16,208 nt of DNA from a virus (lineage: Duplodnaviria; Heunggongvirae; Uroviricota; Caudoviricetes): the IMG/VR virus record IMGVR_UViG_2778261227_000006; one strand, 5' to 3'. The notes beneath the pieces are model-generated. The model saw nothing but the letters and a program-made list of their open reading frames with translations, searched no databases and was not told where the DNA came from. This document shows, one piece after another, positions 7,342 to 16,208 of the stretch (within the stretch, counting starts at the first letter, position 1; each line of letters opens with the position of its first letter). Made by a program: the position numbers and the translations under genes.

Positions 7342-7367
<26 letters not shown>

Positions 7368-7887
7368 TCAGCAACCCCGGTATCAGTTCATCCAGCGCGG
7401 CTGCTTTGTTCATGGCTTTGATGATATCCCGTTTCAGGAAATCAACATGTCGGTTTTCCAGTTCCGGAAAACGCCGCTGCACCGACAGGGGGATCCCGTC
7501 GAGAATACTGGCAATTTCACCTGCGATCCGCGACAGCACGAAAGTACAGAATGCGGTTTCCACCACTTCAGCGGAGTCTCTGGCATTTTTCAGCTCCTGT
7601 GCGTCGGCCTGCGCACGCGTAAGTCGATGGCGTTCGTACTCAATAGTCCCTGGCTGGAGATCTGTCTCGCTGGCCTGCCGCAGTTCTTCAACTTCCCGGC
7701 GCAGCTTTTCGTTCTCAATTTCAGCATCCCTTTCGGCATACCATCTTATAACGGCGGCAGAGTCATAAAGCACCTCATTACCCTTGCCACCGCCTCGCAG
7801 AACGGGCATTCCCTGTTCCTGCCAGTTCTGAATGGTACGGATACTCGCACCGAAAATGTCAGCCAGCTGCTTTTTGTTGACTTCCAT
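7342..7887 (-). CDS. Nu1: Terminase small subunit Nu1 (181 aa)
   Basis: Protein MEVNKKQLADIFGASIRTIQNWQEQGMPVLRGGGKGNEVLYDSAAVIRWYAERD... matches lambda gpNu1 (winged-helix N-terminus); ATG at 7887..7885; cosB lies immediately upstream. Confidence 0.95.
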
Positions 7888-8064
7888 TGTTCATTCCACG
7901 GCCAAAAACAGAGAAAGGAAACGACAGAGGCCCAAAAGCTCGTTTTCAGCACCTGTCGTTTCCTTTCTTTTCAGGGGGTATTTTAAATAAAAACATTAAG
8001 TTACGACGAAGAAGAACGGAAATGCCTTAAACCGGAAAATTTTCATAAATAGCGAAAACCCGCG
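7888..8064 (-). other. cosB region (terminase small-subunit binding region between cosN and Nu1)
   Basis: Reverse complement of this stretch matches the left-end sequence of lambda as I recall it (GGGCGGCGACCTCGCGGGTTTTCGCTATTTATGAAAATTTTCCGGTTTAAGGCGTTTCCGTTCTTCTTCGTC...). Confidence 0.85.
7912..8024. repeat. Three copies of the cosB R element (gpNu1 binding sites)
   Basis: AGAAAGGAAACGACAG at 7912-7927 and its exact reverse complement CTGTCGTTTCCTTTCT at 7954-7969 (16-bp perfect inverted repeat, 26-bp spacer); a related copy AGAACGGAAATG at 8013-8024. Confidence 0.75.
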
Positions 8065-8076
8065 AGGTCGCCGCCC
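8065..8076. other. cosN cohesive-end sequence (12-nt overhang of the mature genome)
   Basis: Plus strand aggtcgccgccc is the reverse complement of GGGCGGCGACCT, the lambda 12-nt cohesive end; flanked on the right by cgtaacctgtcggatcgccgg, matching the lambda right end (cosQ side). Confidence 0.85.
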
Positions 8077-8109
8077 CGTAACCTGTCGGATCGCCGGAAA
8101 GGACCCGCA

Positions 8110-8275
8110 AAATGATAATAATTATCATCTGCATGTCACAACGTGCATCTACGCCATCAAACCACGTCAAATAATCAATTATGACGCAGATATCGTATTA
8201 ATTGATCTGCATCAACTTAACGTAAAAACAACTTCAGACAATACAAATCAGCGACACTGAATACGGGACAACCTC
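8110..8275 (+). promoter_or_regulatory. Putative promoter/operator region of the ynfO-ydfO cassette
   Basis: 17-bp perfect palindrome ATGATAATAATTATCAT at 8112-8128; ATCTGCAT motif at 8127-8134 and 8205-8212 with inverted copy GCAGAT at 8186-8191; AT-rich; -35/-10 not confidently placed. Confidence 0.35.
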
Positions 8276-8509
8276 ATGTCAACGAAGAACAGAACCCGCA
8301 GAACAACAACCCGCAACATCCGCTTTCCTAACCAAATGATTGAACAAATTAACATCGCTCTTGAGCAAAAAGGGTCCGGGAATTTCTCAGCCTGGGTCAT
8401 TGAAGCCTGCCGCCGGAGACTGTGCTCAGAAAAAAGAGTTTCTTCTGAAGCAAACAAAGAAAAGAGTGACATTACTGAATTGCTCAGAAAACAGGTCAGA
8501 CCAGATTGA
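8276..8509 (+). CDS. ynfO: Small protein with ribbon-helix-helix-like N-terminus (YnfO/YlcI-like, 77 aa)
   Basis: ATG at 8276, TGA at 8507-8509; MSTKNRTRRTTTRNIRFPNQMIEQINIALEQKGSGNFSAWVIEACRRRL... matches my recollection of K-12 Qin YnfO; RHH-like strand-helix-turn-helix pattern. Confidence 0.7.
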   Translation: MSTKNRTRRTTTRNIRFPNQMIEQINIALEQKGSGNFSAWVIEACRRRLCSEKRVSSEANKEKSDITELLRKQVRPD

Positions 8510-8566
8510 AGCAATTTAGATAATCGTGCAGACTACGCCCCCTCATATCACATGGAAGGTTTATCT

Positions 8567-8977
8567 ATGGATCAGGTAGTCATTTTTAAACAAATATTTG
8601 ATAAAGTTCGAAACGATTTAAACTATCAATGGTTTTATTCTGAGCTAAAACGTCACAATGTCTCACATTACATTTACTATTTAGCCACAGAGAATGTTCA
8701 TATTGTATTAAAAAATGATAATACAGTGTTATTAAAGGGCCTAAAAAACATTGTGTCTGTCAAATTTTCAAAGGATAGGCATCTTATAGAAACGACCTCT
8801 AATAAGCTGAAATCCAGAGAGATCACATTTCAGGAATACAGAAGAAACCTTGCTAAAGCAGGAGTTTTTCGGTGGGTTACAAATATCCACGAACAAAAAA
8901 GATATTACTATACCTTTGATAATTCATTACTATTTACTGAAAGCATCCAGAAAACTACACAGATCTTACCACGCTAA
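8567..8977 (+). CDS. ydfO: DUF1398-type protein (YdfO/YbcV-like, 136 aa from second ATG; alternative ATG at 8552)
   Basis: [40 protein letters not shown]... matches my recollection of YdfO/YbcV; GGAAGG SD 7 nt upstream of ATG 8567; stop TAA at 8975-8977. Confidence 0.75.
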
Positions 8978-9128
8978 ACCATAACGTCCGGCTTCTCTCA
9001 CTCCTGAGCCGGACTGCATTGGTTTAATAAAAACCATCAACAATTGTGATTTAGATATTCGGAACCATTCAAATATAACAAAACCCCGTAAAAACGAGGT
9101 TTATGGATAAATTTTATTATTGAATACA

Positions 9129-9302
9129 TCAGATTAAATTAATCTTGACATCATAGCTTTCAAGACCCGTCATTTTTTCCCGTGCGGTAAACTGAATACT
9201 GGTAACTTCTTTCCCGGTCTTTTTCTTAAGTTCAATAATTTTTTTTGTTATATATTCAGAAATATCTGCTTCTGCTTTTGTTTTTAAGTTTTCAATATTC
9301 AT
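9129..9302 (-). CDS. gnsB: GnsA/GnsB family protein (57 aa; not in ORF track because under 60 aa)
   Basis: Manual translation of minus strand: (M)MNIENLKTKAEADISEYITKKIIELKKKTGKEVTSIQFTAREKMTGLESYDVKINLI, closely resembling GnsA/GnsB as recalled; tandem ATGs at 9305 and 9302. Confidence 0.7.
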   Translation of the reverse strand: MNIENLKTKAEADISEYITKKIIELKKKTGKEVTSIQFTAREKMTGLESYDVKINLI

Positions 9303-9473
9303 CATTTCCTCTTTTAGTCTGTTATGACTTTCCAGTTACACAGTAAGTCGATTATATGGTGCAAACGTGTAAAAGATAAGATGAAACATCGCAATAATCA
9401 ACATACGATAGTCTAAATTTTACACAAACAGACAAAGAAAATTTTCCTGAATTATCAATACAATAGCATCAAA

Positions 9474-9704
9474 TCAACTCAAGAGCCTTATTGCTGCTTC
9501 CAGAATTTCTTCTGAAGTAACATGTCGATCCGCGGCTACATAAATGACTTTATGATCTCCGGTCAGAGATGGAAACCCTGCGGCCATTACAGTAAGGTGT
9601 GTTTTTTCGCCATTTGGATATTCACGCATGATGGTGTTAACTCCAGTCATCGCTGGCACTACCACTGCAGGTTCAGAGTTAAAAAAAACTATGATTTTTT
9701 TCAT
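9474..9704 (-). CDS. ynfN: Hypothetical small protein in the position of ynfN (76 aa from ATG 9704; a 51-aa product would start at ATG 9629)
   Basis: ORF MKKIIVFFNSEPAVVVPAMTGVNTIMREYPNGEKTHLTVMAAGFPSLTGDHKVIYVAADRHVTSEEILEAAIRLLS; non-repetitive; sits between cspI and gnsB as ynfN does in Qin; no clear SD at either start, so the start is uncertain and the symbol is positional. Confidence 0.5.
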   Translation of the reverse strand: MKKIIVFFNSEPAVVVPAMTGVNTIMREYPNGEKTHLTVMAAGFPSLTGDHKVIYVAADRHVTSEEILEAAIRLLS

Positions 9705-9746
9705 GATGTTACCGTAGTATGTGAGTATCCATCGAATAGATACCAA

Positions 9747-9770
9747 GCAAAAAAGCTCCCGAAGGAGCCT
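9747..9770 (-). terminator. Rho-independent terminator (UUCG tetraloop hairpin + U6)
   Basis: Minus strand: GGCUCC-UUCG-GGAGC followed by UUUUUU (plus 9748-9769); lies downstream of cspI and upstream of the ynfN-like ORF. Confidence 0.6.
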
Positions 9771-9975
9771 TCATTTTCACTTTTTTAAATCCAACGACAG
9801 ACGGCTGGCATTTAAGTATTGTGAAATATTATCAAATGTAATCATCATTGATTTACAAAAGATACATTTTGCCCCGAAAGGATTCATGTCAGAAACATCA
9901 AAAGATGATGTTCTATACTGGGAACCATGACAACACGGGCATCTAAAGTGAATATGGTTTGTAATATTGTCTACC

Positions 9976-10188
9976 TCAAAGCGCCACTACATGAACAGCG
10001 GCAGGACCTTTAGGTCCGTTCTCAATATCAAATTCAACTTCCTGATTCTCAGTTAATGTTTTGAAATCGTTGCTCTGAATTGCTGAGAAATGGACAAACA
10101 CATCTTTGCTGCCATCTTTCGGCGTGATGAAACCAAAACCTTTTTCAGGGTTAAACCATTTCACTAAACCAGTCATTTTGTTAGACAT
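9976..10188 (-). CDS. cspI: Cold-shock protein, CspA family (70 aa, CspI-like)
   Basis: [70 protein letters not shown] with the KGFGFI and VFVHF RNP motifs; ATG at 10188..10186; long AT-rich 5' leader upstream. Confidence 0.9.
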
Positions 10189-10551
10189 AATTATTACCTT
10201 TTGAAGAAATTAGCCCTTGGGCAGAATGGTCCGAAAAAAAATATCAGAGAGAAAAACCAACAAGGAAATCTCAAGAGGTACAAATAATAAAATTATAACA
10301 ATGACTGCTTCAGATAAATTTGTAACAAACCAGAACACCATTAACGCATGATTAACCACCCATAGCAAGGATTACTTTTGTAAAGAAAAACACAGCAATG
10401 AAAGAATAGCTTTATTTATTAATAATAACGTGTCATTCTGATTAAGACCTTTTATCTTACCCTTAAGATTTCAGGAATTTTGGCTCATGGAAGAGTCCTT
10501 TTTATTTAAATTTTACATTCCGCGATGTAAATGTTCCGATTTAATATTACC

Positions 10552-11575
<1,024 letters not shown>

Positions 11576-11579
<4 letters not shown>

Positions 11580-11887
11580 ATATATTTATGATGAGGACGC
11601 TCGTGCTTATTGGCAGGATTTTCAATCTTAAAGGAGTACTGATGCTGCAGATAAGACTCAACTTTTTCTGACAATTTTTCTGCTACTTCCAGGAAGACTT
11701 GCCGGACGCTCCTTCTGGCTGCTGCCTCATAAAACTCCAGCGCAGCTCCTTCAACACGGTCCATGGCGACATCCAGGTCAAAAATTTCACCGTCAAAGCG
11801 TTCTTTGTCCTGTAAGGCTACAGTTACCGTAACTTTATTCTCAAAATTACGGACTCCTTTCACAACCAGTTCATAGTCTTGAGTCAT
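11576..11887 (-). CDS. ydfR: DUF1327-type protein (YdfR-like, 103 aa) inserted between holin and endolysin
   Basis: MTQDYELVVKGVRNFENKVTVTVALQDKERFDGEIFDLDVAMDRVEGAALEFYEAAARRSVRQVF... matches my recollection of K-12 YdfR; ATG at 11887..11885, 5 nt after the holin stop. Confidence 0.75.
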
Positions 11888-11891
11888 TGGA

Positions 11892-12107
11892 TTACTCTCC
11901 TCTCGCAGCCTTACGCCTGTCTTCTTTAATCTTGAAATAAAGATTTGTCAGATACGTCAGCAGGCCAAAAACCAGGCTACCCAGCACACCGATTGCAGCC
12001 CACTGTGACGGAGTTACTTTATCGAGTAACTGCAATGCCCAGAAACCAGCATTACCCGCCGATGTGCCATAGGCAACACCTGTTGTTAACTTATCCATTG
12101 ATTTCAT
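11892..12107 (-). CDS. essQ: Class II holin / pinholin (S21-like, 71 aa) with dual-start motif
   Basis: [71 protein letters not shown]: two TM segments, charged C-terminus, Met1-Lys-Ser-Met4 dual start (ATGs at 12107 and 12098); track ORF start at 12182 rejected. Confidence 0.88.
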
Positions 12108-12326
12108 ATCCTCACCCCGATGTACACGGATGGTGCAATATGTTTGAAAAGATCGGAGTCTACGGGGTAGTTTTGACAGCACACGTTGTTCTCAACGGCG
12201 CTAAAAAAACATACACATTAAAAATGTGGGTAATTATTTTGAAAGAAAGTCATATATAAAATAATAATACGAGAAATGTTTTCATATTTAGTGTACTGTA
12301 TACGGCCATTTATACAGGAAAAGCCT

Positions 12327-12497
12327 ATGTCAGAACGTAAAAACTCAAAATCACGCCGTAATTATCTCGTTAAATGTTCCTGCCCAAACTGCACCCAAGA
12401 GTCAGAACACAGTTTTTCAAGAGTACAAAAAGGTGCCCTTTTGATCTGCCCTCATTGCAACAAAGTATTCCAGACAAATCTTAAAGATGTAGCCTGA
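12327..12497 (+). CDS. Small zinc-ribbon-like protein (56 aa), antisense to the late operon
   Basis: ATG 12327 preceded by AGGA SD (ACAGGAAAAGCCTATG); MSERKNSKSRRNYLVKCSCPNCTQESEHSFSRVQKGALLICPHCNKVFQTNLKDVA with two CxxC pairs 20 residues apart; TGA at 12495-12497; hairpin/terminator about 60 nt downstream. Confidence 0.5.
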   Translation: MSERKNSKSRRNYLVKCSCPNCTQESEHSFSRVQKGALLICPHCNKVFQTNLKDVA

Positions 12498-12556
12498 TTG
12501 ATTTTATTAGTAACAAGTATTTTTTATATTTTAATAATATATTTAAAGCAGATAAT

Positions 12557-12580
12557 AAAAAACCCGCCTGAGCGGGTTTG
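12557..12580 (-). terminator. Rho-independent terminator (strongest on the minus strand; possibly bidirectional)
   Basis: Stem AAACCCGC/GCGGGTTT (12560-12567 / 12572-12579), loop CTGA; on the minus strand the hairpin is followed by UUUUUU-AUUAU. Confidence 0.6.
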
Positions 12581-12860
12581 AGATTGTGGTGCTTTTTGTG
12601 GGAGTCATCCACTTACGCACTTTGTTTTGCCATGCCAGCAGTTAGCTTCTGCTGTAAAACTATTCATGCAGCAAACCTGCACTTCACCACAATGGTTAGC
12701 ATACTTTTCCTGATTAAGATTTTGCCAAATATGCTAGCCATTGTTTCATGTATTGGACCTCCTTACTTTTTATTAAAGAGATCCAATATTCACTACTCTG
12801 TCCGTATCTCTACTCAGGCATCAGCCTTCTTCGTTATCGTATACAGACGAGCGATGAATT

Positions 12861-13076
12861 TTAATCAGTAATGATGACATTTGCTGCTGCAGGACCTTTA
12901 GCACCACTCTCTATAGAGAAGGTAACCTTTTGACCTTCAAATAAGGTTCGATAATTATCATTCTGAATCGCAGAAAAATGCACAAACACATCTTTACTAC
13001 CATCAACAGGAGAAATAAAGCCGAAACCTTTATCAGCGTTAAACCATTTTACTAAACCAGTCATTTTATTTGACAT
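12861..13076 (-). CDS. cspB: Cold-shock protein, CspA family (71 aa, CspB-like)
   Basis: [71 protein letters not shown]; ATG at 13076..13074; TAA at 12861-12863. Confidence 0.9.
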
Positions 13077-13376
13077 TCTACATTCCTTAACTTGAGCCTT
13101 TCGGCATAAATGGTTTGCATAACAGAAACGACTTCGTACTTAATTGGAGAGACTCAAAGAAGGAATAAGTGAATAACACCTGAAATGAGAACTGCTTTAG
13201 TAAACTACTTCGTATATCGTCTGTTCTTCAAACCGACGCAATCATTAACGCATAGTTGAACATATGAAGCAATGTTTATTTTAGACATCCAGCCATCTTC
13301 AACCCCATCAAAAAACTATAGCTTTCTTCAGGAACGTGTGTATAGTGCGCCAAGTTATCAGTATTAAGGAATTTTT

Positions 13377-13589
13377 TTGTCCCGTAAAATGACAGGAATT
13401 GTCAAAACCTTTGACGGCAAAAGCGGCAAGGGTCTTATCACCCCATCCGATGGTCGTATCGATGTCCAGCTTCATGTCTCAGCGCTCAATCTCCGCGATG
13501 CAGAAGAAATTACCACCGGATTACGCGTGGAATTTTGCCGGATAAATGGTCTGCGTGGCCCTTCAGCTGCCAATGTTTACCTTTCATGA
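13377..13589 (+). CDS. cspF: Cold-shock-domain protein (70 aa, CspF/CspH-like), TTG start
   Basis: (M)[69 protein letters not shown]; AAGGA SD at 13366-13370 sits 6 nt before TTG 13377; divergent from cspB. Confidence 0.85.
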
Positions 13590-13643
13590 GCTATATTAAA
13601 GCTTTAATTTCAGGCCCCATCGGATCACACATGGAGAGTTTTT

Positions 13644-13733
13644 ATGAATAACCCCGTCTGTCTTGATGACTGGTTGATTGGCTTTAAAAGCTTATGCTGT
13701 ACTTTGGCCGTAATAGCTCTGCTAATAATATAA
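13644..13733 (+). CDS. Candidate 29-aa hydrophobic mini-protein downstream of cspF
   Basis: GGAGAG SD (13633-13638), 5-nt spacer, ATG 13644; [29 protein letters not shown] then TAA (13731-13733); single predicted TM helix; terminator hairpin follows at 13882. Confidence 0.35.
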
Positions 13734-13881
13734 TAAGCAGACTCATTGTGTTTAGGGACATTGTACTGGAAGAAAACATTTTAAACATCAGGCAAATAAC
13801 CAAGTCACCAGCTAAATAATAAGTTAACAGACATGAGTCCCGGGATGAGATTCAACATTACCATTGCCCCATTTAAAGCAC

Positions 13882-13917
13882 AAAACCCGCTCATCAGCGG
13901 GTTTTCTACTTTTTCTT
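13882..13917 (+). terminator. Rho-independent terminator (plus strand, cspF transcript); possible tR'-like hairpin on minus
   Basis: Stem AAAACCCGC/GCGGGTTTT (13882-13890 / 13897-13905), loop TCATCA, then CTACTTTTTCTT on plus; on minus the same hairpin is followed by UUUUGUGCUUU. Confidence 0.55.
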
Positions 13918-13950
13918 AACGTCGGGTATACAAAGCCCATCGTTGAAAAA

Positions 13951-13978
13951 ATTTTATCCATATTTTTTGAAAAATGCA
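13951..13978 (-). promoter_or_regulatory. Candidate late promoter (pR'-like) just downstream of Q
   Basis: Minus strand TTGCAT (-35; plus 13973-13978), 16-nt spacer, TAAAAT (-10; plus 13951-13956), about 30 nt after the Q stop codon and about 45 nt before the hairpin. Confidence 0.4.
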
Positions 13979-14010
13979 AACATCATGTCGCCATCTTCAG
14001 CAAAAATCAT

Positions 14011-14763
14011 TTATCTCGTCACCTTCCTCAATTGCGCTTCCGCGTATGCTTCTTCCTGCCAGCACTTTGTTACCAGTTTACCAATGACGTCCGCATACCC
14101 CTTATACCACTGATAATCGGTCAGGTCTGGTACCAGCTTCTGGACATGACGTCGTGCCAGCGTGGTCGGTAAACGACTAAACCGGTTTCCATTACAACGC
14201 CCACAAATCTTATATACCGGTACGCCATGAAACCGGGTTCTTTTTTCATCCAGAACAATCCCTTTACCCTTACACCCTCTGCACGCTGTGCTGGCTTCGC
14301 CCTTACCATGGCAATGCTGACATAGTTCCTTCACCCATTCTTCCTTGATTACAGATTCCCCGCGTCTGTAGTGTTTCACCACTTCGCGCAATACATTATA
14401 AAATCCCGTACCTGAACAATGCTCACAGCGAGCCTTACTTGCCGCAGACCTGGAGTAATCAGCAAAGGCAAAACTCACGAGGTAAGGAATAATCTGTAAC
14501 CGGATTTCTTCACTCAATTTGTTCAATGTCGGGTTATCCAGTGCCATCGCGTAATTTAGCAGGCCTTCAATCGCAAACTGAGGGTCCTGAACACCAACTT
14601 TTGCCAGAAATAAGGCCAACCCAAGTGGTGCTTTCGACTGCACCATCCCCTGCGCTGCCATTACATCCGTAATTGTTAAACAACCGGTGCCTGTCGCTGG
14701 AGCGTCATCGCTCAATTTTGGAGATTTTGGGGAGTAATATTTTGGTAAGGCTTCAAGGTTCAT
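14011..14763 (-). CDS. quuQ: Late-gene antiterminator Q (250 aa, Qin/phage-21-type)
   Basis: MNLEALPKYYSPKSPKLSDDAPATGTGCLTITDVMAAQG... with C-terminal Cys/His cluster (CEHCSGTG, CQHCHGKG, CRGCKGKG, CGRCNGN); ATG at 14763..14761; track start at 14793 rejected. Confidence 0.85.
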   Translation of the reverse strand: MNLEALPKYYSPKSPKLSDDAPATGTGCLTITDVMAAQGMVQSKAPLGLALFLAKVGVQDPQFAIEGLLNYAMALDNPTLNKLSEEIRLQIIPYLVSFAFADYSRSAASKARCEHCSGTGFYNVLREVVKHYRRGESVIKEEWVKELCQHCHGKGEASTACRGCKGKGIVLDEKRTRFHGVPVYKICGRCNGNRFSRLPTTLARRHVQKLVPDLTDYQWYKGYADVIGKLVTKCWQEEAYAEAQLRKVTR

Positions 14764-14776
14764 GCTCGTTCTCCAC

Positions 14777-15826
14777 TTACGCCAGTACGCCAATTGCCAG
14801 CGCGCGATCGATAAAACGAAATATCAGCTCCAGTTGGGAGCCATACTTATCTTCAAATGCCACTGTATCCGTATGCAGCTCGTTGTGATGCTTTCTGCAC
14901 AAAGGCAACACAAAGAGATCATGTGCTTTTGTTCCCATTCCGCCCTGCCCGTGACCAATCAGATGATGCGGATCGTCGGCTGGCATACCGCAGCAAGCAC
15001 ACGGCTGTGTCTTAACCCAACGTGTGTATTTCTCCTTAACCCAGCGGCGACGTTTAGGCAGCTTCATGAAAGATTCCGGAGACTCTGGATCAACGGTGAT
15101 GCTTACCACCGTCTTTTCCTGTGGTGATTTTTGTTGCTGGTGGGCGTAAGGCAACGGTGCAAGATTTTTTGTGCGTTGTTTCAATATGCTGGTGGCGGTC
15201 TGCTCTCCCGGTACGATGTCGCTTTCGCGGTACACCGAGCAGATTTTTTCCGCTGGTAATCCCAGCGAACGACGCGATACAGCCTCAGGTAGTGCATCCA
15301 CCACCTGATTGCAGACCGCCCACCAGGATAATTCAGCCAAAGATAATTCCCGCTCCTGCGTACCGCTTATTGCGTGACGGATGACGTCAATCACCCATGC
15401 TGTCAGATTTTGTTGAGCAAGCAGCTCCAGTGATTCCGATGTCTGGTCACGCAGTTGGTTGTCGCAGTGCCAGCACAACACCATTGCGCCGGTACCATAA
15501 CGGTGAATGACTGTTTCAGTGTGATGGTAATCGCCATTAGGCCACTGGCAGGATGTAACATGACGTAATAGCCAGTCGGACAATGCGCCAACGCCGCCAG
15601 CAGCACGAATCACCCGTTCGTTACTAAAAAACGGCAGCAATGTTTTGTCTTCCGCCAGCGGCTGGCGAACGGCAGGAACGACTCCGGATGGCAGATTACG
15701 CATGCTTTTTGGTTCCGGTTCCACCAGCACTCGAGGATTATGAAATATCTGTATGGATTCACGGCCCGGCTTAAGGACCACCAGCCCAAGCTCAGGCACC
15801 AGAACAGGTCTAAGTAATACCCGCAC
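14777..15826 (-). CDS. ydfU: DUF968-type protein with HNH-like Cys/His motif (YdfU-like, 349 aa, GTG start)
   Basis: GTG at 15826..15824 preceded by GGAGGT SD gives 349 aa; C-terminal motif CACCGMPADDPHHLIGHG...LCRKHHNELH; stop 13 nt upstream of the Q start. Confidence 0.75.
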   Translation of the reverse strand: MRVLLRPVLVPELGLVVLKPGRESIQIFHNPRVLVEPEPKSMRNLPSGVVPAVRQPLAEDKTLLPFFSNERVIRAAGGVGALSDWLLRHVTSCQWPNGDYHHTETVIHRYGTGAMVLCWHCDNQLRDQTSESLELLAQQNLTAWVIDVIRHAISGTQERELSLAELSWWAVCNQVVDALPEAVSRRSLGLPAEKICSVYRESDIVPGEQTATSILKQRTKNLAPLPYAHQQQKSPQEKTVVSITVDPESPESFMKLPKRRRWVKEKYTRWVKTQPCACCGMPADDPHHLIGHGQGGMGTKAHDLFVLPLCRKHHNELHTDTVAFEDKYGSQLELIFRFIDRALAIGVLA

Positions 15827-15827
15827 G

Positions 15828-16208
15828 TTACCTCCAGATCCGTTGCTGGAAAGTGCGGGACGCACGTGGTGGGCGTTCGGAATAAGGCAGCCTGACAGAG
15901 ATTATCCAGTGCCGATAGTCGAGACTGAGAGCTTTCTTAACCTCGAACCCGCGCCTGCGGTAAGAATGAATCAGCCATTCGGCCTGTTCTGCAGTGCATG
16001 GAGGGTGCTGGAACCATTCAGACTTGAATGCGTGAGAATACCGCCCGTGCGTGCAGGCAAGAACGGGCGAATTATCAGAATTGTAATATTTTGCGTTGCG
16101 TGCCATCGGTTTTCTCCGGTGGCACGGTGTTTGAACCGCCCCGGGTTTCCTGGAGAGTGTTTTATCTGTGAACTCAGGCTGCCAGATCATCGTTTCCGAT
16201 GGAAGCAT
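15828..16208 (-). CDS. Hypothetical protein upstream of ydfU (start uncertain: ATG at 16106 gives 92 aa; frame stays open to the window edge)
   Basis: Open frame ending TAA at 15828-15830, 1 nt before the ydfU start; candidate start MARNAKYYNSDNSPVLACTHGRYSHAFKSEWF... with GGAG about 7 nt upstream; not recognised. Confidence 0.4.
   Translation of the reverse strand: MLPSETMIWQPEFTDKTLSRKPGAVQTPCHRRKPMARNAKYYNSDNSPVLACTHGRYSHAFKSEWFQHPPCTAEQAEWLIHSYRRRGFEVKKALSLDYRHWIISVRLPYSERPPRASRTFQQRIWR

Follow-up and report, generated by a model that had tools for sequence, protein, structure and literature searches.

In the window, by which we mean the whole 16,208-nt stretch of DNA that was analysed, a small gene lies between the holin gene essQ and the cold-shock gene cspB. 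It runs from 12327 to 12497 on the plus strand (from the ATG to the last base of the stop codon) and encodes 56 amino acids: MSERKNSKSRRNYLVKCSCPNCTQESEHSFSRVQKGALLICPHCNKVFQTNLKDVA. Seven nucleotides upstream of the ATG is a Shine-Dalgarno sequence, AGGA (12316..12319, plus strand), and (C)AGGA is kept upstream of the start codon in nearly all of the aligned homologous loci. The protein has a basic N-terminus, and it is basic overall, with 10 lysine or arginine residues versus 4 aspartate or glutamate residues and a pI of 9.4. Its two knuckles are CPNC (residues 19–22) and CPHC (residues 41–44), and the predicted ligands of a Cys4 zinc ribbon are C19, C22, C41, and C44. An earlier reading of this DNA (the original prediction) had described the ORF, its AGGA, the basic N-terminus, and the two motifs, and all of these hold. 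It also stated that the motifs were spaced by 20 residues, which is not correct: the gap from C22 to C41 is 18 residues, and there is an extra cysteine, C17. Because C17 is replaced in Atlantibacter, in one species of Citrobacter, and in distant members of the family (the residue is serine, asparagine, or threonine in Atlantibacter, that Citrobacter, Yersinia, and Hafnia), it is probably not a ligand for the metal.

The original prediction could not place the protein in a known family, but the protein belongs to a curated one. Protein and HMM searches, which had been suggested as a check, matched it to Pfam PF23499 ("YnfU") with 107.3 bits (cut-off 27), covering positions 1–49 of the 49 in the profile, and to NCBIfam NF038384 ("YnfU family zinc-binding protein") with 79.4 bits (cut-off 36). 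We are nearly certain that the gene is ynfU of Escherichia coli K-12 (b4776, "putative zinc-binding protein YnfU"), from the Qin prophage. A 421-bp query around the ORF has a match in 1651 of 5426 complete E. coli genomes (30%); it is 99.8% identical to the DNA of K-12, and the feature beneath the match is annotated as ynfU, including in MG1655. The coding sequence shares 170 of 171 bases with K-12 ynfU, and the one difference (C161A) leads to A54D in the C-terminal tail, which is variable and not conserved. In K-12, the gene has the same length, the same two CPxC knuckles, and the same neighbors (essQ, ynfU, cspB, cspF, quuQ). More broadly, positions 7359-16131 of the window are 99.7% identical to K-12 Qin, and over its full length the window shares 99.8% identity with a Qin-like prophage of strain AL.H8, which retains terminase, portal, and capsid genes. 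The prophage in the window is more complete than K-12 Qin: its terminase, portal, and capsid genes are intact and its ynfN is unbroken.

Work published in 2019 already reported ynfU, showed that it is translated, and noted the zinc-knuckle motif of its product, and the family is curated in both Pfam and NCBIfam. Weaver et al. (bioRxiv 10.1101/511675) found ynfU by Ribo-RET, that is, by profiling stalled initiation complexes. They detected YnfU with a chromosomal SPA tag, and in stationary-phase samples its level was the highest among the newly identified small proteins. They also pointed out that the protein has two CPXC zinc knuckles, and by threading they obtained a moderate match to the PA0128 zinc domain. 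PIRT-Seq provides an independent second detection of ynfU. So translation, which the original prediction had listed as something to check, was already established by published experiments, and among the small proteins of E. coli that are still uncharacterised, YnfU is one of the better expressed. Later papers on YnfU repeat merely "possible metal binding," and our literature search found no functional study of it.

In the window, a lambdoid prophage of the Qin type carries ynfU as cargo in its Q-S interval. One border of this interval is essQ (11892..12107, minus strand), which is the first gene of the lysis cassette and is divergent from ynfU, and the other border is the gene for a Q-type antiterminator (14011..14763, minus strand). 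Also within the interval are cspB (12861..13076, minus strand), which encodes a cold-shock protein and is convergent with ynfU, and cspF (13377..13589, plus strand), which encodes a CspA-family paralogue, is divergent from cspB, and is the third gene of a recurrent ynfU-cspB-cspF cassette. The original prediction placed the ORF antisense to the late genes and this is confirmed: ynfU is on the opposite strand from essQ-ydfR-rrrQ-rzpQ and from cspB, and so opposite to late transcription. Other small genes (gnsB-ynfN-ynfR-ynfQ-cspI, at 9129-10188) lie downstream of the lysis cassette, so that this set of small genes is split, with ynfU-cspB-cspF on the upstream side. The leader of cspB matches the cspA thermoregulator (Rfam RF01766; 12845-13237, minus strand; 158.8 bits). 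Rfam matches were limited to the cspA-type leaders of cspB and cspI, and the search gave no RNA family at ynfU or antisense to it.

To follow the gene across species, we scanned one representative genome per species and obtained 80 ynfU loci from about 16 genera. All 80 loci have an intact ORF of 51–60 amino acids with the pattern CPxC-N18-CPxC, and all four of the ligand cysteines, whose conservation the original prediction proposed to check, are kept in every one. (The losses of cysteines that we saw in protein-database entries are from singleton or frameshifted records.) The mean pairwise divergence of ynfU at codon positions 1, 2, and 3 is 0.25, 0.12, and 0.50, and the median dN/dS is 0.10. 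Among the six frames, only the frame of YnfU is free of stop codons in all 74 distinct sequences. Within the Enterobacteriaceae, the core SEHSF[ST]RVQKG is nearly invariant, and the basic N-terminus is conserved as well. We found no interruption of ynfU in near-identical prophages: four genomes carry IS200C downstream of the gene, between ynfU and cspB, and ynfU is left intact. Thus, ynfU is a translated 56-codon gene under strong purifying selection.

Some phage records annotate a longer ORF of 73 amino acids that starts from an ATG at 12276. We rejected this start because the 17 additional in-frame codons are free of stops in just 41 of the 80 loci, because the lengths of the indels between the Shine-Dalgarno sequence and the ATG are not divisible by three, and because the curated annotation begins at 12327. 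The string "VYGxRP" in over-extended calls of homologs is a promoter-like block of DNA that has been read as protein.

Short ORFs are frequent by chance in AT-rich intergenic DNA, and in the window a 7-bp inverted repeat, CTGTATA (12296-12302)-N8-TATACAG (12311-12317), overlaps the Shine-Dalgarno sequence. We considered that the ORF might have arisen by chance, or that it might be a misreading of a regulatory DNA or RNA element such as this palindrome. This is almost certainly wrong, given the low dN/dS, third codon positions that diverge four times as much as second positions, the intact ORF at every locus, and the experimental detection of the protein. The palindrome itself fares poorly as an operator or RNA switch: other genera do not share it, and a cross-genus alignment of the ynfU leader has 0 conserved pairs according to RNAalifold. 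Nor is it a LexA box, which is CTGT-N8-ACAG; the spacing in the palindrome is CTGT-N14-ACAG.

Upstream of the ATG, conservation extends for only about 70 nt, and it does so across genera and whatever the genomic context. The conserved block has a fixed order: an A-rich stretch (12260-12269 in the window), a -35 zone, a 17-nt spacer, TAnnGT, (C)AGGA, and the ATG. In the window, the weak -35 zone is GAGAAA (12271-12276), with an invariant G at 12273, and the -10-like hexamer is TACTGT (12294-12299). As the leader has no conserved RNA pairing, we read this block, as seen in the cross-genus alignments, as a candidate promoter that travels with ynfU (12271..12299, plus strand). A consensus scan gave a different best match, the sigma-70-like TTGAAA-18-AATAAT (12239..12268, plus strand; 10 of 12 positions). 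This match is specific to Escherichia and lies mostly outside of the conserved block, and it may be an additional, Escherichia-specific promoter.

Beyond ynfU, 63 nt after its stop codon, is a G+C-rich hairpin, AAACCCGC-CTGA-GCGGGTTT (12560..12579), that is flanked by an A-run and a T-run. Its predicted folding energy is about -12.4 kcal/mol on the plus strand and -12.8 kcal/mol on the minus strand. A pattern scan scored it as a terminator on the minus strand only, where the tail is UUUUUUAUU; the tail on the plus strand is UUUGAGAUU. The original prediction was right that there is a hairpin just downstream. By its structure, this is a bidirectional intrinsic terminator that is common to the convergent ynfU and cspB, and it should work better for cspB because the U-tract is stronger on that strand. 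A CCCGC/GCGGG stem, with differing loops, recurs 3' of ynfU in Klebsiella, Raoultella, and Superficieibacter. Since the promoter-like block and the Shine-Dalgarno sequence are conserved across genera, and a terminator hairpin follows the gene, ynfU looks like a self-contained transcription unit. It has the features that are used to recognize lambdoid morons, namely a position in the Q-S interval, an orientation opposite to its surroundings, a promoter-like block, a terminator hairpin, and variable presence. We infer that its transcription is independent of the late genes, which is supported by the detection of the protein in uninduced K-12.

How widespread is the family? A word-indexed search found 48 protein clusters, all of which match PF23499 and all of which are from Enterobacteriaceae. 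When we searched 1.84 billion representative proteins exhaustively with an HMM, we obtained only 43 matches. The distant homologs have 53–63 amino acids and are from Yersinia, Hafnia, Erwinia, Cronobacter, Mangrovibacter, and Jejubacter; NCBI labels most of them as "YnfU family." We looked for fusions to other domains among the 43 HMM matches and found none that were informative: the convincing matches are singletons of 50–60 amino acids. The long proteins among the matches are over-called ORFs that contain ynfU, or multi-CxxC repeat proteins that match via the knuckle alone. Judging from these searches, the family is small, is confined to the Enterobacterales, and always occurs as a stand-alone mini-protein.

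The original prediction raised the possibility that the protein is a prophage regulator or an anti-defence factor. More specifically, YnfU might regulate lysis or lysogeny or inhibit a defence of the host or of a competing phage, and its position before the holin gene might be functional. This would fit with the location of ynfU in the moron interval of a lambdoid prophage and with the presence of a copy in 8 sequenced phages. In one of these, the unrelated Klebsiella phage ST13-OXA48phi12.4, a copy that is 59% identical has the same position, divergent from the holin gene, and has no csp gene beside it. However, just 8 of 50,697 phage records carry ynfU. The bacteria in which it adjoins a lambdoid lysis cassette are Escherichia and some Citrobacter, and an EssQ-like holin is near ynfU in just 7 of the 80 loci (essQ is a neighbor only in Escherichia, at a few other loci, and in one Klebsiella phage). 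In phage PHB10, ynfU and a csp pair are beside the integrase and are far from the lysis genes in the stretch that we examined. And in most of the family, the neighborhood is that of an ordinary chromosome: in Enterobacter, Klebsiella, Yersinia, Hafnia, Erwinia, Cronobacter, Mangrovibacter, and Jejubacter, ynfU is mostly chromosomal and outside of prophages. Its neighbors there include genes for a GST, a tautomerase, an ArsR-type regulator, and an EF-G paralogue (Enterobacter); PTS and amino-acid metabolism genes (Klebsiella); dsbB (Yersinia); fliE (Erwinia); and genes for lactate utilisation (Jejubacter). Searching with YnfU, we obtained 0 families from PADLOC and only noise-level matches from PHROGs, the best of which (E = 0.002) is to a family of unknown function. 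Finally, K-12, which has a defective Qin prophage, makes YnfU without being induced. By its genomic distribution, the YnfU family is not phage-specific, and we consider a role in the phage cycle or against host defences to be distinctly unlikely.

The neighbor that does recur is a cold-shock gene. In tblastn searches with the proteins of the window, 58 of the 80 loci proved to have a gene for a CspB- or CspF-like protein no more than 1.3 kb from ynfU. Unbiased clustering of all of the flanking ORFs also gave the csp family as the top neighbor (56 loci). E. coli has nine csp genes in 4.6 Mb, and by our own arithmetic from such textbook numbers, the chance that a random E. coli gene has a csp gene at most 1.3 kb away is about 0.5%. 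To discount shared ancestry, we grouped the loci by their other flanking genes, which gave 22 distinct contexts; csp-linked copies of ynfU occur in 20 of these, in several orientations. In the distant genera, Hafnia has a gene with a cold-shock domain (CSD) at +830 from ynfU; Mangrovibacter has both a CSD gene and a YmcF-like gene near ynfU, divergent at -320; and Cronobacter has both at about -2 kb. The csp neighbor is absent in 22 of the 80 loci, and also in Yersinia, Erwinia, and Jejubacter.

Two other kinds of mini-proteins recur near ynfU. A YnfN-like protein of about 75 amino acids is encoded in 29 loci, usually divergently and just upstream of ynfU; it has no match in Pfam or NCBIfam. 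A YmcF-like, cysteine-rich mini-protein (PF23641) is encoded near ynfU in 11 loci, besides those in Mangrovibacter and Cronobacter, and in the window itself this family is represented by ynfQ, in cspI-ynfQ. The YmcF/YnfQ-like proteins resemble YnfU in that they have about 60 amino acids, are rich in cysteine, have two CxxC pairs, and are encoded next to csp genes. However, their knuckles (CPCC...CIFC) are unlike those of YnfU, and their genes directly follow a csp gene in the same orientation, unlike ynfU, which forms a unit of its own. As for homology between YnfU and its YmcF-like neighbor, we rejected it: BLASTP gave no alignment at E ≤ 100, and PF23641 is not among the Pfam matches of YnfU.

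The linkage to csp could be just the co-travel of small accessory genes that do not share a function. Alternatively, YnfU might be a dedicated partner of the accessory CspB/CspF-type paralogues, within a mobile stress cassette that also includes the YmcF-like and YnfN-like mini-proteins. Under this possible but unlikely scenario, a zinc-ribbon protein that binds RNA or the ribosome, the Csp proteins, and the mini-proteins would form a cassette that is kept on the chromosomes of Enterobacterales. From there it would have been picked up by lambdoid phages such as Qin, and in Qin the lysis cassette would split the island into gnsB-ynfN-ynfR-ynfQ-cspI and ynfU-cspB-cspF.

The fold of YnfU offers some hints about what it might bind. 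The original prediction of a zinc ribbon still stands as a prediction, with the four cysteines invariant across the species-level loci and the databases describing the protein as zinc-binding. An AlphaFold 2 model from the family alignment has two beta-hairpins that bear the knuckles (strands at 13–18 and 25–30, and short bridges around the second knuckle) and disordered termini; its confidence is modest, with a mean pLDDT of 66. Foldseek found no significant match to this model in the PDB. The top match was yeast Tim15 (2e2z), with E = 0.29, a probability of 0.97, a TM score of 0.55, and an rmsd of 2.3 Å over 42 columns, and the next matches, also not significant, were a zinc-finger protein on the Methanosarcina ribosome, ZitP, and ribbons from RNA polymerase subunits. 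A profile search against PDB sequences gave L44e (E = 0.04, from the first knuckle, CPxCxxxxEHS), Tim15 (third, E = 0.19, from both knuckles), and PA0128 (E = 1.8).

Three known types of proteins are represented among these weak matches. L44e/eL42 (archaeal/eukaryotic) and the zinc-finger proteins of the Methanosarcina ribosome are small, basic, single zinc ribbons like YnfU, and the first knuckle is similar, as is the strand after it (CPxCxxxxEHSxS), but the alignment of L44e with YnfU covers only about 23 residues and is not significant. The PhnA/YjdM ribbon (PF08274) is the type that includes PA0128 (PDB 2akl). YnfU matches PF08274 with 22.4 bits and E = 1.2e-4, which is below the cut-off of 30.8 bits, and 2akl was not a significant match; furthermore, PhnA/YjdM proteins have a second, C-terminal domain that YnfU lacks. 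We rejected membership in that family. The third type is the DNL ribbon of Tim15/Zim17/Hep1 (PF05180, zf-DNL), which is the best structural match, and whose knuckle spacing and S-x-H-S/T segment, which follows the first knuckle, are similar to YnfU's. DNL proteins are escort proteins for Hsp70 in eukaryotic organelles and have about 100 or more residues.

If YnfU works like a DNL protein, then it would bind and stabilise a larger protein, such as an Hsp70-type chaperone, and it would not bind nucleic acids. Besides the matches to Tim15 and a Pfam hit to zf-DNL at E = 0.076, this idea has in its favor the expectation that most small proteins act by binding larger proteins (Weaver et al., 10.1101/511675). 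But none of these scores is significant (the zf-DNL match is 13.4 bits versus a cut-off of 27), the structural query was a model with modest confidence, and the D-N/H-L motif is not conserved in the tails of the family: in E. coli YnfU the tail has a TNL that is offset differently, and the tails in other genera (for example, LFKSTQRL) are unrelated. We rejected YnfU as a member of PF05180, and we think that a DNL-type role is unlikely. The nearest matches of YnfU are RNA- or protein-binding zinc ribbons, all below significance, and, like the pI and the conserved basic N-terminus, they hint at a binding role. We interpret YnfU as a generic Cys4 zinc ribbon that presents its own conserved surface, made up of the basic N-terminus and SEHSF[ST]RVQKG.

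Could zinc itself be the point? YnfU might be a small buffer, store, or chaperone for zinc: the Cys4 site is conserved, and the databases and the later papers say solely that the protein is "zinc-binding" or "metal-binding." But a single site of the structural type per 56 residues would make a poor store. Furthermore, conservation is as high in SEHSFSRVQKG and the basic N-terminus, between and around the knuckles, as it is at the cysteines, which suggests a binding surface rather than a metal site alone. No metal-homeostasis genes recur among the neighbors of ynfU, and no conserved Zur-box-like operator lies upstream. (When we looked for a Zur or Fur box, the window had one half-site-like sequence, GAAATGTT, which is not kept in other genera.) A role in metal homeostasis is very improbable.

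Instead, we propose that ynfU is a gene of host physiology that lambdoid prophages such as the one in the window carry as cargo. Because late transcription would cross ynfU in the antisense direction, the gene is probably expressed in the lysogen, which fits with the detection of YnfU in uninduced K-12. The gene's own promoter would drive production of YnfU in the lysogen, and the protein would benefit the host rather than the phage cycle; during lytic growth, Q-dependent transcription of the late genes would run antisense to ynfU and would probably silence it. The protein would be a small, zinc-stabilised module whose binding target is RNA, the ribosome, or a partner protein, and it would act in the stress programme of its csp neighbors, during cold, stationary phase, or long-term stationary phase. 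We give a probability of roughly 40% to this explanation as a whole, which includes the identification as ynfU, the independent transcription unit, and the host role and mechanism. The part about the host role, production in the lysogen, and a binding module within a csp-linked stress programme is tentative, and we would not be surprised if it were wrong.

This analysis adds two leads to what was known about ynfU: the family is not specific to phages, and its conserved genomic partner is a gene for a cold-shock protein. Our literature search found no paper that describes the linkage of ynfU to csp or its mainly chromosomal distribution. These leads direct experiments towards cold shock and long-term stationary phase and away from phage biology.

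Published expression data show co-regulation among several of the neighbors. (These data sets, from PMC7406224, PMC11228462, and PMC6001520, were analysed with ynfU not annotated, so they cover the neighbors only.) In long-term stationary phase, cspB, cspF, cspI, and ynfN are among the most highly expressed genes, and mutants of cspB and cspI are outcompeted (PMC7406224). Expression of cspI, ynfQ, and ynfN rises jointly after AZT (PMC11228462), and YnfR, which is encoded beside cspI, is strongly induced by cold (PMC6001520).

In other genera, a set of small genes associated with cold shock lies contiguously around ynfU, the gene for the 56-amino-acid zinc-ribbon mini-protein. In some, such as Enterobacter, a YnfN-like gene is divergent from ynfU and immediately upstream of it; in others, such as Mangrovibacter, the upstream neighbors are a cold-shock-domain gene and a gene for a YmcF-like (PF23641) Cys-rich mini-protein. 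Downstream of ynfU in other genera, there is often a csp gene. In this prophage, the lysis cassette (essQ-ydfR-rrrQ-rzpQ) divides the set into two groups, with gnsB-ynfN-ynfR-ynfQ-cspI (9129–10188, minus strand) on one side and ynfU-cspB-cspF (12327–13589) on the other. The Rfam model for the cspA thermoregulator (RF01766) has two full-length minus-strand matches in the window: one spans the leader and start of cspB (12845–13237, 158.8 bits), and the other spans those of cspI (9949–10334, 112.6 bits).

Directly after cspF lies the gene (13644–13733, plus strand) for YnfS, a 29-amino-acid protein that VanOrsdel et al. 2018 detected. The interval between the antiterminator and the lysis cassette therefore contains at least four small genes, each independently oriented.

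Across the lysis cassette, ynfN (9474–9704, minus strand) is an intact open reading frame of 76 amino acids, whereas ynfN of E. coli K-12 is frameshifted, according to RefSeq. Because ynfN homologs (about 75 amino acids) adjoin ynfU in 29 of the 80 ynfU loci from our scan of one genome per species, yet belong to no family in Pfam or NCBIfam, the product of ynfN is a conserved but uncharacterized small protein. In the window, the annotated first codon of the YmcF-like gene ynfQ (9777–9965, minus strand; 62 amino acids, CPCC...CIFC) is ATT rather than ATG, GTG, or TTG. From the first canonical start codon, YnfQ would have only 36 amino acids and would lose the first CxxC pair.

Among the best 25 of 1653 matching E. 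coli records, none was 100% identical to 12200–12620 of the window. Within the ynfU coding sequence, the sole difference from K-12 is C161A (window position 12487), which leads to A54D; residue 54 is alanine in K-12 and in most other Escherichia loci. In four complete E. coli genomes, an IS200C element has inserted between ynfU and cspB, close to the terminator hairpin that the two genes share (corresponding to about 12500–12860 of the window; 1964–2422 of locus L090). Both ynfU and cspB are still intact in these genomes.

Enterobacterial ynfU loci were also found in records whose titles name Veillonella, Vagococcus, Kocuria, and Bacillota (L007, L029, L035, and L038). These most likely reflect contamination or mis-binning in the source assemblies. 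In one of them (L007), the lysis and csp region is complete and Qin-like.
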